Below, one piece after another: positions 44 to 4,099 of a stretch of 4,099 nt of DNA (position 1 is its first letter; each line of letters begins with the position of its first letter). A program made the position numbers and the translations under genes. The notes under the pieces were generated by a model. That model ran no database searches. It saw only the letters and a list, made by a program, of their open reading frames with translations, and had not been told where the DNA came from. The DNA comes from a virus (taxonomy: Duplodnaviria; Heunggongvirae; Uroviricota; Caudoviricetes), in the IMG/VR virus record IMGVR_UViG_2531839622_000025; one strand, 5' to 3'.

Positions 44-88
44 CCCCCTCCGCACGCACATGCGACCATGCCGCACAGGGAGGGAAAG

Positions 89-1198
89 ATGACCGACACC
101 ACCATGCAATTGCTCAGTCAGAGCACAGACCCCGTGAAAATGCCGGATTTTGATATTCTCGCGGAGGGTAAAACGCTGTCAGGCGTGGCAGAGCGCCTGA
201 TGAGCCTGTCACTGACCGACAACCGGGGATTTGAAGCAGACCAGCTCACCATCACGCTGGATGATGCGGATGGTCAGTTGCAGCTACCGCCACGGGGTGC
301 GCGCCTGACGGTTCTCATTGGCTGGAAAGGAGAACCGCTGACAGAAAAAGGCACTTACATTGTTGATGAAATCGCACACGAAGGACCGCCGGACAGGCTG
401 ACGGTTTCAGCCAGAAGCGCAGATTTTCGGGATGAATTTAACGTTAAACGAGAGGTGTCCTGGCATGATGTGACCGTTGAGCGTGTGGTATCCGCCATCG
501 CTCATCGGTACGGTCTGAAACCGCAAATCAGCGAAATGCTGATGGATATCGAAATCGACCACGCCGACCAGACCGAAGAAAGCGACATGTCCTTCCTTAC
601 GCGCATGGCGGAAATGCTGGGCGCAATCACCACGGTAAAAAGCGGTAATCTGTTATTCATCATGCCAGGCGGTGGCGTGAACGCACAGGGCCAGCCGTTG
701 CCCTCGTTCGCCATCACGCGCAGCAGTGGCGATCGCCATCAGTTCCGCATTGCTGACCGCGAAGCGTATACGGGGGTACGCGCTTACTGGCTTGATCTTA
801 ATTACGGGAAAAAGAAAAAAGTCAGCGTGAAACGCCGCAAACCGCCAAAACCCAAAAAGGAGAAAAGCAGCAGCCGTGAAGGTGATTATATGGAAGGCGC
901 AGAAGGCAATGTGTTTGTGTTACGCAAGACTTATCAGAACGAGCAGGCAGCAAGACGCGCAGCGGCGGCAAAGTGGCAGCAGCTACAACGCGGAGCCGCA
1001 GCGTTCTCCATCACACTGGCACGTGGACGCGCAGAACTCTACCCCGAAATGCATGGCACGGTAACAGGATTTAAAAGCGAAATTGATAATCAGGACTGGA
1101 TTATTGCAAAAGCCGAGCACACCATTGATAACAGTGGCTTTACCACGCAGCTTGAGCTTGAAGCCAAAATCCCGGAATGGATAGCAGAAACAGAGTGA
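89..1198 (+). CDS. D: Phage tail protein D / late control gene D protein (Phage_GPD family; baseplate hub, related to the VgrG N-terminal region)
   Basis: ORF 68..1198; translation contains the block SLSLTDNRGFEADQLTITLDDADGQLQLPPRGARL that I recognise from P2 gpD-family proteins. Start placed at ATG 89 because of the SD-like agggaggg at 77-84; ATG 68 has no SD. Stop TGA 1196-1198. Confidence 0.88.
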   Translation: MTDTTMQLLSQSTDPVKMPDFDILAEGKTLSGVAERLMSLSLTDNRGFEADQLTITLDDADGQLQLPPRGARLTVLIGWKGEPLTEKGTYIVDEIAHEGPPDRLTVSARSADFRDEFNVKREVSWHDVTVERVVSAIAHRYGLKPQISEMLMDIEIDHADQTEESDMSFLTRMAEMLGAITTVKSGNLLFIMPGGGVNAQGQPLPSFAITRSSGDRHQFRIADREAYTGVRAYWLDLNYGKKKKVSVKRRKPPKPKKEKSSSREGDYMEGAEGNVFVLRKTYQNEQAARRAAAAKWQQLQRGAAAFSITLARGRAELYPEMHGTVTGFKSEIDNQDWIIAKAEHTIDNSGFTTQLELEAKIPEWIAETE

Positions 1199-1360
1199 GC
1201 AACTTAAATGTATTAACTCAGAACGGATCAACACACTCACAACATAGAGTCAATATAGCTGCTCGCTTTGTTCCAGCAAGGATGCCTATTTCTAAGGAAA
1301 AACAGAGCAGAAACATATGGTGTTTTCCTACCTGACATCAGGGGTGGTAAGAATCATGCT

Positions 1361-1388
1361 TTGATAACCAATTGATAACTATTATTAT
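1361..1388 (+). promoter_or_regulatory. Putative sigma70 promoter of the cargo gene (-35 TTGATA 1361-1366, 16-bp spacer, -10 TATTAT 1383-1388)
   Basis: Hexamers read directly from the sequence in an AT-rich 225-bp intergenic region; RBS GAGG at 1414-1417 precedes ATG 1424. Contains a TTGATAAC direct repeat (1361-1368, 1372-1379). Confidence 0.35.
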
Positions 1389-1423
1389 ATTAATCTAACA
1401 CCATTGACATAGTTGAGGTTTGA

Positions 1424-2926
1424 ATGAACAAAAAGCTGTATTTATTCCCAGACTCAAACATTTTTCTACAATGCAAGGACTTGACGCAGGTAAATTTTTC
1501 CGAGATTACTGCTTGTGATGAAGTATGTATCATTATTACAAGGCCCATTCAGCAAGAGATTGACCGCCAGAAAGGGCAAGGTAATTCCCGCCTATCCAAA
1601 AAAGCAAGGAAGGCTGCTAGCCTATTTAATCAAGTAGTTGATTCAACTGACATGACTCTTGTTATTCGTGAACGCTCGCCGCGAGTTTTTCTTACCATGG
1701 ATCTAAGCCTGAAACCATGTGAACAGTTATCTGAACAATTGGATTATCAGGAGGCCGACGATCGTTTTGTTGGTATTGCGGCAGGGTATTGCGCTGACGA
1801 TCCAGATTCGGAGGTGGCAATCATTACCAATGATAGCGGTCCACGTTTTTCAGCAATAAAACATAATATAATCTGCTATAAAGTGCCTTCTTCATGGTTG
1901 CTTCCTGCTGAGCCAGATGAAAAGGATAAACAAATTAAATTGCTGGAAGCTAAGCTGAAGCAATTCACTCAGTCTATGCCCGATTTCAGCATTAAAGTAG
2001 CCGATGACGAGCAATTAAATATTGTACTTCCTTATTATACAGCTTTATCTGAATATGAAGTTGATAATTTGCTTTGTCAACTAACGGATGCATTCCCATT
2101 GGTTACAAACTTTGACAATGAACAAACTACCCCACAATCACTAGAAAAAATCATCAAGTCATTTAGTCAACAGGAGTATTTCCCTGTATCAGCAGATGAT
2201 ATTTCTCTTTATAAAGAAAAACATTATCCACTTTGGAAAAAGCAGTGTGAAGAAATACTGAAAAACTGTCATACTCATATTAATCCGAAGGCAATAAAAT
2301 ACCCGCTGTCGTTTTTATTACAAAACACAGGTTATACTATCGCTGAACGTGCTGTGGTAACATTTACAGCAAAAGGAGATTTTCGTCTGTGTGGATTTAA
2401 TTGGGAGATAATGGAAGAGCTGACTGAAAGCAAAAGGATTGACCTACCTTCAGCCCCTACCGCCCCCAAAGGAAAATGGCGTAGTGTATGTGGCGTAACA
2501 GAAAGAATGCCTTACGCTTGGGGAGCTTTGGAAACACCGCTATCCAGTATAATTTCAAAAGAAATTGGTCCTTTGTTATCTCTTACTCCAACAGAAAGGG
2601 ATAAAAACGATTTTTATTATAAAGAAAAGAGAAATGAGCCAGTTCAAGTTGTATCGCTGGAATGCGAAGAGTGGCGTCATCAAGTCAAAGAAGAAATATT
2701 CCCGTTGTTCGTATATACAGCCAACAAACCAAAGAAAGTGAATGGTGCAATTGAGGTGAGAGTTGATGCAAATAACCTTACCAATCCGGTCATTAAAACA
2801 TTTAAATTAAAAATAACTATAGAAGAACATAGTGCATTTTCAACCATAACAGAAATGGTGCAGACATACATTCAAGAGCAGAAGAAAAGACAGAAAAGTT
2901 CTATTAGCGCACAAATCAAAACATGA
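1424..2926 (+). CDS. PIN-like nuclease domain fusion protein (N-terminal PIN fold, ~350-aa C-terminal domain of unknown function); candidate anti-phage / abortive-infection cargo gene
   Basis: 500-codon ORF with good RBS. N-terminus LYLFPDSNIF (D10), QQEIDRQ (E45), EADDRFVGIA (D112/D113) and AIITNDSG (D137) fit the four-acidic-residue PIN signature including the C-terminal T-x-D motif. Visibly AT-rich compared with flanking D and ogr. Lies between D and ogr, which are adjacent in P2 as I recall it. Confidence 0.8.
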   Translation: MNKKLYLFPDSNIFLQCKDLTQVNFSEITACDEVCIIITRPIQQEIDRQKGQGNSRLSKKARKAASLFNQVVDSTDMTLVIRERSPRVFLTMDLSLKPCEQLSEQLDYQEADDRFVGIAAGYCADDPDSEVAIITNDSGPRFSAIKHNIICYKVPSSWLLPAEPDEKDKQIKLLEAKLKQFTQSMPDFSIKVADDEQLNIVLPYYTALSEYEVDNLLCQLTDAFPLVTNFDNEQTTPQSLEKIIKSFSQQEYFPVSADDISLYKEKHYPLWKKQCEEILKNCHTHINPKAIKYPLSFLLQNTGYTIAERAVVTFTAKGDFRLCGFNWEIMEELTESKRIDLPSAPTAPKGKWRSVCGVTERMPYAWGALETPLSSIISKEIGPLLSLTPTERDKNDFYYKEKRNEPVQVVSLECEEWRHQVKEEIFPLFVYTANKPKKVNGAIEVRVDANNLTNPVIKTFKLKITIEEHSAFSTITEMVQTYIQEQKKRQKSSISAQIKT

Positions 2927-3034
2927 GGGTGTACTCAAATAATACAATGCTATAGTAAATCTATAAGTGCATAACTATTTCCTGATCTTTTCCCAAAATA
3001 GATGACAGGATAAAAAACATTCCAATCTTTTACA

Positions 3035-3069
3035 GGCTTTGGATAAATCGTATCAAAGCCTATTTCTTC
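3035..3069 (+). terminator. Weak terminator-like hairpin downstream of the cargo gene
   Basis: ggctttg (3035-3041) / caaagcc (3054-3060), 7-bp stem with a 12-nt loop, followed by tatttcttc. The T-tract is imperfect and the stem is short. Confidence 0.2.
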
Positions 3070-3110
3070 AAGAGTTAAATCACCGCTTTTCGCTCGAAAC
3101 GGACTGGCTG

Positions 3111-3139
3111 TTGGAGTATGAGCCAGAACAACTTAGAAT
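3111..3139 (+). promoter_or_regulatory. Putative ogr promoter (-35 TTGGAG 3111-3116, 17-bp spacer, -10 TAGAAT 3134-3139)
   Basis: Hexamers read from sequence; RBS aagggagg at 3157-3164 precedes ATG 3170. P2 ogr is known to have its own promoter. Confidence 0.25.
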
Positions 3140-3169
3140 AGCCCCTGCACTACGTTAAGGGAGGTCGCT

Positions 3170-3430
3170 ATGTTCCGTTGTCCGCTTTGTGGCGCATCAG
3201 CCCGCATCCGTACCAGTCGTCCGGAAAATGATTCAAACACCGTGCGGCAAAAGTATTACCAGTGTAACAATCTAGAATGCGGCGTATGCTTCTCAACACT
3301 GGAAGCTTTTCATAAATTCACATCGAAACACGCCTCCGGCGTTCACTCTTCAGAAGGTATCCCGTGGCATGAGCTGCCAGCTTCACACAGGGGAAACAAT
3401 CAGATGAGTTTGCCTTTGCCTCAAAATTAA
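3170..3430 (+). CDS. ogr: Ogr/Delta-family zinc-finger late transcription activator
   Basis: 86-aa ORF starting MFRCPLCGASARIRTSR...YYQCNNLECG; Cys-X2-Cys...Cys-X4-Cys arrangement and N-terminal MF.CPLC...ARTSR match P2 Ogr / E. coli OgrK as I recall them. Strong RBS. Located downstream of D as in P2. Confidence 0.88.
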   Translation: MFRCPLCGASARIRTSRPENDSNTVRQKYYQCNNLECGVCFSTLEAFHKFTSKHASGVHSSEGIPWHELPASHRGNNQMSLPLPQN

Positions 3431-3468: not shown

Positions 3469-3490
3469 ACGCGCGGGTGCCTTTCGGCTG

Positions 3491-3703
3491 ATGGTCGGAG
3501 GGAATACCCGAAGGCCAGATGTGGAAAGGCCCCGGAAAACATCTCTGTTTAACCGAGGCCCTAACCGCATTACCTTGACAAGTGAAAGGTTAGCGCCTCT
3601 CCGGAAAAGGAGCAAGTGCTATGTCGCAAAAATCGCTTACGGCCATCACGTTCTGTGTGACGGCAATCCTCATCATCTGGATGTTGCACGGTTCGCTGTG
3701 TGA
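3491..3703 (+). CDS. mok: mok-like overlapping reading frame (translational coupling partner of hok)
   Basis: 70-codon ORF in a different frame that begins upstream of and overlaps most of the hok-like ORF, as in plasmid R1 hok/mok/sok. An alternative GTG start at 3521 is preceded by AAGG. The product is probably not functional as a protein. Confidence 0.35.
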   Translation: MVGGNTRRPDVERPRKTSLFNRGPNRITLTSERLAPLRKRSKCYVAKIAYGHHVLCDGNPHHLDVARFAV

Positions 3704-3761
3704 AATACGGATGAGCTTCTGGGGAGCGGAGTTTGCGGCGTTCTTACAGTGTAAGCAGTAA
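3621..3761 (+). CDS. hok: Hok/Gef-family type I toxin (small membrane peptide)
   Basis: 46-aa ORF MSQKSLTAITFCVTAILIIWMLHGSLCEIRMSFWGAEFAAFLQCKQ: N-terminal hydrophobic helix, SLCEIR and EFAAFLQCK blocks resembling the Hok family (closest in my memory to HokA, ..SLCELHIKQESYELAAFLACK..). RBS aaggag at 3607-3612. Below the length cutoff of the supplied ORF track. Confidence 0.72.
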   Translation: MSQKSLTAITFCVTAILIIWMLHGSLCEIRMSFWGAEFAAFLQCKQ

Positions 3762-3850
3762 GGAAACCGCGACGGGGGAGCTATCCCCCGTCAATCGGTT
3801 GCCAGGGTAAGGCCGGATAAGGCACCCTATCTCACAGATATGAACAACAA

Positions 3851-3885
3851 ACCCGCAGCGTAAAAACTGCGGGTTTTCTTTTTGG
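3851..3885 (+). terminator. Rho-independent terminator (probable 3' end of the hok-like transcript)
   Basis: acccgcag (3851-3858) / ctgcgggt (3867-3874), 8-bp stem with an 8-nt loop, followed by tttctttttgg. Confidence 0.6.
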
Positions 3886-4029
3886 TGCCCTCACCGCCTT
3901 GAAACAGTGATAAGACTATAAGACAAAGCCCGCAATGTAGCGGGCTTACTCCCCTCACCCTCCACTGAATGTGGACACACAGTGGAACGAAGCGGCATAA
4001 GATATTATAAATCAATCAGTTATTGAAAG

Positions 4030-4055
4030 AAAAAAGGCCGCAGAGCGGCCTTTTT
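4030..4055. terminator. Bidirectional rho-independent terminator
   Basis: aaaaaa-ggccgc-aga-gcggcc-ttttt: perfect 6-bp GC stem flanked by an A-run and a T-run, so it can function on either strand. Confidence 0.6.
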
Positions 4056-4099
4056 AGTTAGATCAGATTACTCGTCTTTGGGCGAAGCGTTTTCGACCC

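Follow-up and report, generated by a model that had tools for sequence, protein, structure and literature searches.

Why does ogr, the late-gene activator gene of a P2-family prophage, lie almost 2 kb downstream of the tail gene D, when the two genes nearly touch in P2 itself? The question is raised by a stretch of 4,099 nt from the IMG/VR virus record IMGVR_UViG_2531839622_000025 (hereafter the window, meaning the whole stretch), which is the right end of a P88-type P2-family prophage (Xuanwuvirus/Gemsvirus, Peduoviridae) next to ihfA in E. coli O157/O111. The D stop (1198) and the ogr ATG (3170) are separated by 1,971 bp, composed of a 225-bp leader (1199-1423), an open reading frame (ORF) of 1,503 bp that encodes a protein with a PIN domain, and a 243-bp trailer (2927-3169). 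A sequence-only reading of the window had given these coordinates and lengths, which proved exact, and had proposed that the expanded junction may be an insertion hotspot for cargo genes. It had also stated that ogr follows D closely in P2, and this is borne out by NC_001895, in which the end of D (23954) and the start of ogr (24036) leave a gap of 81 bp that contains the annotated ogr promoter. The GC content of the interval in the window is 38% overall (0.30-0.45 along it), vs 0.52-0.59 in D and about 0.50 in ogr.

The explanation which we favor, with a probability of about 0.8 for the whole, is that the D-ogr interval of P88-like prophages would serve as a dedicated docking hotspot, holding either an empty 42-bp spacer or one AT-rich cassette of 1-4 kb. 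Each cassette would carry its own gene or genes between a left boundary element of ~90 nt and a right one of ~55-90 nt, with a direct repeat of 7-9 bp outside these elements. The interval is probably a second docking position for Z/fun-type cassettes, because its boundary elements are homologous to those at the Z/fun site of P2 (between G and FI). Close relatives would exchange whole cassettes through homologous recombination that crosses over within ogr and within the 3' end of D, and the PIN gene of the window would be one defence cargo among many.

Variability of the D-ogr junction

The junction was compared in the best 80 of 211 IMG/VR loci found with the Ogr of the window, many of them from related isolates. 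The Ogr proteins are 99-100% identical, D was located in 79 loci, and its flank is 96-100% identical across them. Between these flanks, 36 of the 79 loci have only the empty 42-bp spacer (GCAACTTAGAATAGCGGCAGCACCACGTTAAGGGAGGTCGCT and close variants), while the other 43 carry intervals of 989-3,523 bp with a GC content of 33-43%, falling into 14 clusters without common cargo sequence. The PIN cassette is one of the 14 clusters and is represented by three loci. The insert is not an assembly artefact, because it is at least 99% identical from end to end in 59 complete E. coli chromosomes, mostly of O111/O157 relatives.

A 442-bp probe of the empty junction was searched against 5,426 complete E. 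coli genomes and found the junction in 1,202 (~22%), of which 720 have at least one contiguous empty copy. In the remaining ~40% of the junction-bearing genomes the match is interrupted precisely where CAACTTAGA begins, and at occupied sites homology to the empty junction picks up again exactly at the right repeat (query position 202). Sampled complete genomes add two types, a SIR2-HerA pair (~4 kb) and a four-gene HxsDBCA set, and the DUF2971 and YecA/SEC-C cargos known from the IMG/VR types were met again. At least 16 interchangeable cassette types are therefore found at exactly this position.

Control junctions, sampled in the same way, are flat. All 80 loci with a P2-type Ogr have a D-ogr gap of 80-82 bp, the S-V junction measures 11 bp in all 80 loci of the P88 lineage, and for D relatives (60-80% identity) from ~20 further enterobacterial species the gap is 36-59 bp. 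Because the D-ogr junction is variable while these three control sets are not, the hotspot is real and lineage-specific, belonging to P88-like phages (Xuanwuvirus/Gemsvirus) and not to P2 proper or to most other relatives of D. The only other occupied case was seen in four Providencia species, whose D-ogr insert of 1.3 kb (25% GC) carries, on the opposite strand, the gene of a multi-pass membrane protein of 406 aa and is degraded in two of the species. Boundary elements are absent from the Providencia insert, which is an independent use of the junction.

The cargo was annotated by Pfam and PADLOC. It includes a PifA-like KAP NTPase (2.6e-64), SIR2 (2.5e-155) with HerA (2e-252) in complete genomes, a DUF2971/PDC-S31 protein (3.7e-27), a GmrSD_N(DUF262)+HNH protein, a PIN_12 protein as a second PIN type besides that of the window, a weak HEPN RiboL-PSP match, a HetE-N protein beside a 932-aa protein, a PsyrT-like PRTase with a partner, a SEC-C-motif protein and an alpha/beta hydrolase. 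Several cargo ORFs have no domain match, and most cargos match no database entry or known system. The set has the profile expected of a prophage defence hotspot and is predicted to consist mostly of genes of anti-phage type, with a defence role predicted for most members. The sequence-only reading had raised the possibility of a variable defence hotspot, and alternative cargos (14 IMG/VR types, together with the empty state) do lie between the same D and ogr flanks, PifA, SIR2-HerA, PDC-S31 and GmrSD_N+HNH among them. The PIN gene is no uniform core gene, and P2 has no comparable gene at this place. The suggestion is supported and has to be narrowed in two respects, since the hotspot is confined to the P88-like lineage and is not independent of Z/fun.

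Cassette boundaries and cassette turnover

Unrelated cargos share the sequences at both ends of the interval. On the left, the D stop is followed by GCAACTTAGA and then by TGCATTAGCTCAGAC...CTGACACGCTTACAGCACAGAACCAAACCTAATCTGACAGTCCGCTCTGTGCCAGAAGCGGAC; on the right, the cassettes close with ...TTCGCTCAAAAC.GAACTGTCAGTTGGAGTCTGAGCTAGTACA, which is followed by ACTTAGAATAGC... into ogr. Read in this way, the shared ends place a copy of CAACTTAGA at either side of a cassette (Table 1). In 13/14 types, those with both junctions alignable, the direct repeat flanks the cassette, and the empty 42-bp junction has a single copy, which is the pattern of a target-site duplication with diverged copies. 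The two copies of one cassette match at 3-7 of 7 positions and, because they differ, the duplications would be old rather than fresh.

Table 1. Features of the window, with positions counted from its first letter.
Feature	Position	Strand	Remarks
Left direct-repeat copy	1200-1208	+	CAACTTAAA in the window; consensus CAACTTAGA, core ACTTAGA
Left boundary element	1209-1294	+	Begins TGTATTAACTCAGA; aligns with the left ends of other D-ogr cassettes
Right boundary element	3071-3130	+	Ends GAGCCAGAACA; aligns with the right ends of all other cassettes; includes TTGGAG (3111-3116)
Right direct-repeat copy	3129-3137	+	CAACTTAGA; overlaps the TAGAAT -10 candidate (3134-3139) of ogr
Cargo gene	1424-2926	+	1,503-bp ORF, 500 aa; PIN_4 4.5e-08
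Candidate sigma-70-like promoter of the cargo gene	1361-1388	+	TTGATA-16-TATTAT, 10/12 consensus matches
Shine-Dalgarno sequence of the cargo gene	1415-1418	+	GAGG
Terminator-like hairpin (3034-3061) and U-rich tail	3034-3070	+	Downstream of the cargo gene
gpD (tail/baseplate hub)	68-1198	+	Upstream conserved flank; Pfam Phage_GPD 3.5e-17; PHROG 52 tail protein 4e-166
ogr (late-gene activator)	3170-3430	+	Downstream conserved flank; Pfam Ogr_Delta 5e-14
hok/mok/sok type I toxin-antitoxin module	3475-3761	+	Between ogr and the prophage end; outside the hotspot, context
Phage/host junction	near 3837-3886		Phage records cease matching there
ihfA, 3' end	4068-4099	-	

A profile of the left element found the element twice in P2, directly after the G stop (15278-15368, plus strand, E 4e-14) and, in inverted orientation, ahead of the FI promoter (17425-17498, minus strand, E 2e-5), and these two elements bracket fun(Z). 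The same profile gave 32 matches across P2-type loci and found both ends of a PIN cassette between S and V in Rahnella, as well as a place near the PIN gene of a Pectobacterium integrative and conjugative element (ICE). Because this first profile contained the window, so that its E-value was not independent, profiles were rebuilt from Z/fun boundaries only. They detect the left ends of 11 of the 14 D-ogr types (E 5e-12 to 2e-3; interval positions 11-103) and the right ends of two (~1e-11). Since most cassette types share boundary sequences with Z/fun, the D-ogr hotspot is not independent of it. Furthermore, the left and right profiles each match the opposite end on the minus strand (in the loci L019, L018, L001, L013, L012 and L087, and in P2), and the boundaries are therefore imperfect inverted copies of one element of ~90-100 nt. 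This relation emerged from the profile searches only; a pairwise inverted-repeat search between cassette ends gave z <= 2.7 and was significant in only 2/15 representatives, and a repeat search of the window found nothing at the cassette ends.

All 81 exact matches of the element's 23-nt core in IMG/VR lie just downstream of G; the next core gene that could be detected is FI in 63 of them, and in 17 there is nothing detectable on the downstream side. In 1,174 E. coli genomes it is present in 1-3 copies per genome, and the two strong matches that were examined are Z/fun sites with SIR2 or hypothetical cargo. The element also occurs outside phages. One weaker match, on the E. coli GPEC874 chromosome, is a solo copy of the most conserved inner core (E 9e-12; L252 3497-3552) in a non-P2 island, with a GTPase-family gene on one side and a TetR/amidohydrolase/SIR2 cluster on the other. 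The Pectobacterium carotovorum ICE has elements at L088 5431-5522 and 7735-7773, both in right-end orientation, around the PIN homologue in the type IV secretion system (T4SS) element, which suggests tandem cassettes sharing boundaries outside any phage.

Other kinds of unit were considered and rejected. For a structured RNA or DNA element, RNAalifold gave no consensus structure, the boundaries of the window fold no better than shuffles, and no Rfam match was found; a hairpin of 9-11 bp is present in the left ends of P2 and Rahnella and absent from the other ends tested. An integron cassette does not fit elements that occur at both ends, inverted relative to each other, and have no conserved secondary structure, and no IntI-type gene is adjacent, the phage integrase lying beyond att. 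An invertible segment of the Gin/Pin type is contradicted by 72/72 co-linear pairs of the same type.

The right boundary may also matter for ogr. In the occupied window TTGGAG stands 17 nt upstream of TAGAAT (3111-3139) as a possible -35/-10 pair of ogr, and in the empty site the counterpart of this -35 falls within the last part of D and matches poorly. A hybrid promoter may thus drive ogr at occupied sites.

The flanks carry a trace of how cassettes change. The last 50 nt of D are 99.1% identical within a cassette type vs 93.2% between types, and at 100-200 nt the difference narrows to 95.3% vs 93.9%; ogr is 99.8% identical within a cassette type vs ~97% between types. The last ~50-100 nt of D co-vary with the cassette type, and the left direct repeat and even the D stop codon show cassette-specific variants. 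Because the linkage between the D end and the cassette decays with distance, whole cassettes would be replaced by homologous recombination with crossovers nearby in D and in ogr. Such turnover agrees with the "swap" model that was put forward for the defence loci of P2/P4 (PMC13586616). Transfer between docking sites would need crossovers in the boundary elements, or mobility of the elements themselves.

The latter leads to the alternative that survives best, which we nevertheless consider unlikely. The cassettes would be non-autonomous, transposon-like elements which make a target duplication of 7-9 bp, are served by a transposase in trans and target the site themselves. It is supported by the inverted relation of the two ends, by tips of the form TG(C/T)AT...GTACA in 9-10 of the 13 cassette types with alignable junctions, and by ACTTAGA/CAACTTAGA, which flanks the alignable cassettes and occurs only once where the site is empty. 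Z/fun of P2 may show a diverged 7-bp duplication as well (empty GC-AATAAAY-ACAGG vs occupied GC-AATAAGT-[element]-AATCAGG-ACAGG), the same bounded PIN unit is found at two junctions in different phages, and the element occurs in an ICE, in some plasmids and as the solo core in a non-phage island. However, no transposase lies within or beside any cassette, and in the contexts examined the 1-3 copies per genome are almost always within P2-like prophages. All cassette types with an alignable junction use one insertion point, their repeat copies have diverged as old duplications would, the end-to-end inverted-repeat tests are not significant for most cassettes, and orf30 of P2 has no such ends. 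This alternative is compatible with the favored explanation as an account of how the site originated. It is more doubtful still that the ~90-nt inverted elements, with their TG...CA tips and flanking duplication of 7-9 bp, are the ends of a family of non-autonomous mobile cassettes which ferry single defence genes among a few fixed docking sites of P2-family phages (G-FI, D-ogr and S-V), and occasionally into ICEs or plasmids, via a recombinase or transposase in trans. If this were true, phage defence hotspots would have a dedicated mechanism of cassette exchange beyond recombination in the flanks.

A lead towards IS66 came from Klebsiella pneumoniae plasmids (L384 5001-5092 on pINF078-VP; L379 500-600), where a whole boundary element begins at the stop codon of an IS66-family tnpC and the motifs TGAGCTC and CGCTTACA of its outer part recur at the right end of ISCro1. 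A copy of ISCro1 also lies within D, just upstream of the cassette, in E. coli K_EC180. As an origin of the boundary, IS66 was set aside and remains a lead, since the profiles do not detect the end of ISCro1 and neither an inverted repeat nor a duplication that matches could be defined. Most of the 535 plasmid matches were discounted as marginal 30-nt matches (E 6e-3) in related large plasmids.

For the favored explanation, a docking hotspot with Z/fun-type boundaries and recombining flanks, several observations have to be counted on the other side. The left end of the window is too diverged to be detected by the Z/fun-only profile and was found only by a profile that included D-ogr sequences, and its right end is matched only weakly, at 3072-3109 with an E-value of 0.028. 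The boundary membership of the window therefore rests on the alignment with sister cassettes; its ends are among the most diverged, yet they align to these cassettes, and the 78%-identical Rahnella cassette has detectable ends. None of the D-ogr cargos (14 types) is present in the Z/fun regions of 80 P2-type loci, and because no cargo is shared there, recent traffic between the two sites was not caught. The IMG/VR frequencies are rough because they come from the best 80 of 211 loci with many related isolates. Finally, searches with the PIN protein in PADLOC, NCBIfam and PHROGs returned nothing informative.

The PIN protein and the prophage end

The PIN protein of the window has a PIN_4 nuclease domain (PF13638, SMG6/Nmd4-like; 33.9 bits vs a cutoff of 21.9), a helical middle part and a C-terminal beta-sandwich. 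The PIN fold and the conserved acidic active-site residues (D10, E45, D112, D137) are present, and the accession of the protein was found in no paper in a literature search. The closest homologue (73% amino acid identity) is encoded between gpS and gpV of a P2-like prophage of Rahnella, in a cassette with the same boundary elements that is 78% identical in DNA to positions 1282-3106 of the window. Further homologues are encoded by an Enterobacter prophage, in its gpQ-gpA interval (old/tin hotspot), and in the Pectobacterium T4SS element, and each of the three is a lone gene. No antitoxin-sized partner ORF is kept beside the PIN gene in the four contexts, which have no neighbouring gene in common, and the cassette of the window has no second ORF of at least 70 aa.

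Signals of expression were examined in the cassette of the window only. The total of the promoter scan is not enriched over shuffles, and the promoter in Table 1 is a candidate. The hairpin at 3034-3061 has an RNA folding energy of -10.7 kcal/mol (z -4.0), with 0/200 shuffles as stable, and a near-identical hairpin sequence lies downstream of the Rahnella PIN homologue. Together with its U-rich tail it would insulate ogr from read-through. The PIN cargo is most likely expressed from the prophage as an RNase of the anti-phage, abortive-infection type, and we infer a single-protein, sensor-coupled enzyme.

It appears improbable that the same gene has no part in defence and acts as a toxin or addiction module, or in lysogenic conversion of some other kind, merely occupying a permissive site. 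PIN domains are the toxins of VapBC systems, a hok/sok addiction module lies at the same prophage end, and the PIN protein has no match in the defence databases, all of which speak for it. A VapC, however, is ~130 aa long, whereas the PIN protein has 500 aa with conserved extra domains, and a VapBC-type pair was rejected because no small antitoxin gene is co-conserved next to the PIN gene in the four contexts. Moreover, its homologues lie in gpQ-gpA and other P2-like hotspots, which are documented reservoirs of anti-phage genes (PMC9122126, PMC9519451).

Pick-up of the cargo by aberrant prophage excision of host DNA beside the attachment site, as in specialised transduction, could be suspected from the ~0.7 kb that separate the site from the prophage end (~3837-3886), and is very improbable. 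It is already contradicted by the data, since ogr and hok stand between the cargo and att, with the cargo towards the phage, the same junction is used in prophages at ihfA and, in another genome with the same phage type, beside tRNA-Leu/Cys/Gly and pgsA, and most cassette types have phage-type Z/fun boundary elements. That the PIN gene is a fixed, lineage-specific core gene at an invariable junction, as its near-identity in the 59 chromosomes might suggest, is refuted by the hundreds of genomes in which the junction is empty or otherwise filled, and these 59 are mostly O111/O157 relatives.

Several neighbouring features were recorded. RefSeq splits this gpD into an 801-nt ORF and a pseudogene fragment, and its 376-aa frame is actually intact (L004 18870-20000); it has a lysine-rich low-complexity stretch at about aa 247-270, where relatives vary by indels. 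Beyond ogr, Hok is encoded at 3621-3761 (Pfam HOK_GEF above the cutoff) and sok matches at 3475-3634 with 48.4 bits in Rfam, under the gathering score of 59. A module ~82% identical to this hok/mok/sok module is found in many Stx-converting phages. A bidirectional terminator hairpin (3849-3876) overlaps the zone where the phage records cease matching, and between the prophage end and ihfA there is a partial STnc540-like small RNA match on the minus strand (3970-4099, E 7e-4, below the gathering score).

Comparison with known P2-family sites

In E. coli, P2-like prophages rank among the principal carriers of anti-phage systems, and many new defence systems have already come from the two classical hotspots of these prophages. 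D-ogr is a further reservoir that is easily mined, because it is present in ~22% of the complete E. coli genomes and ~40% of these have no contiguous empty copy. The 3' end of D and the 5' end of ogr can be used as anchors, by PCR or in silico, for cataloguing its cargo, and the 500-aa PIN protein, the HetE-N/932-aa pair, the SEC-C protein and several domain-less ORFs are candidates without a match to known systems. The shared boundaries, and one bounded unit at two junctions, give a sequence handle on how defence cassettes are swapped fast without pseudogenisation. As a mechanistic lead, the Z/fun-type inverted boundary elements could prove more novel than the hotspot itself.

The recognised moron and defence positions of P2-like phages are the TO region (gpA-gpQ), the Z region (G-FI) and orf30 (S-V) (PMC3091744, PMC9122126, PMC9519451). 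Our literature search found no explicit description of D-ogr as a hotspot, and no description of the shared boundary elements in a search that did not cover Nilsson et al. 2004 (Mol Biol Evol 21:1), the likeliest place for one. A survey of 2026 (PMC13586616) places hotspots among seven core genes and pools everything downstream of gpL, so that D-ogr is unresolvable there. A one-sentence mention in the earlier literature probably concerns the same region at the resolution of gene neighbourhoods, because D, ogr, att, int and C lie between its landmarks; it gives no junction, lineage, cargo list, empty site or boundaries.

One of the closest known sites is Z/fun, a recognised defence locus (PMC9519451). 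As at D-ogr, an AT-rich, variable cargo of a single gene or few genes directly follows the stop of a late gene, an empty state exists (125-132 bp) and the same boundary elements flank the cargo. Z/fun differs in genomic position, with G and FI as its flanking genes. At D-ogr the right boundary is shortened by a deletion between two CTGTCAG repeats, and there it abuts the ogr promoter and may supply its -35. The surroundings differ too, since the FI-U block of P88-like phages is inverted relative to P2. In the window's own prophage (L004 13149-20000) the tail genes FI-FII-E-T-U lie on the strand opposite D, and D and the sheath operon are therefore transcribed divergently, whereas P2 has them co-linear in the order FI...U-D-ogr. 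A scan of clearly P88-type prophage regions (L004; 5 kb to either side of gene S in 80 loci) found no boundary elements outside D-ogr.

The gpA-gpQ TO region (old, tin) is the cos-proximal hotspot of Rousset et al. 2022 (PMC9122126). Like D-ogr it is a hypervariable, defence-rich interval between P2-like core genes, with the PIN homologue of Enterobacter among its cargo, but its arrangements are commonly larger and multi-gene; no boundary elements were detected in the Enterobacter gpQ-gpA locus (L089). The orf30 (S-V) site is recognised as a moron site in PMC3091744, which cites Nilsson & Haggard-Ljungquist 2007. In the Rahnella prophage this site is occupied by the closest PIN homologue, flanked by the same boundary elements, whereas the S-V junction of the P88 lineage is invariably 11 bp; in orf30 of P2 itself boundary elements were looked for and are absent.

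The D-ogr cassettes also resemble morons and mobile insertion cassettes, being low-GC autonomous transcription units between late genes, with end elements that profiles match as inverted copies, a short direct repeat and no transposase. They differ from mobile insertion cassettes in their very low copy number, in one fixed insertion point and in that no cognate transposase was found, and their ends of ~90 nt are far longer than typical inverted repeats of insertion sequences. With a fixed position between conserved core genes, many unrelated arrangements besides empty sites, and known anti-phage systems in its cargo, the D-ogr junction of P88-like prophages stands beside these sites as a further P2-family defence hotspot, in the sense of Rousset 2022 and Vassallo 2022, that had not previously been pinpointed, its cargo having predicted roles in defence.

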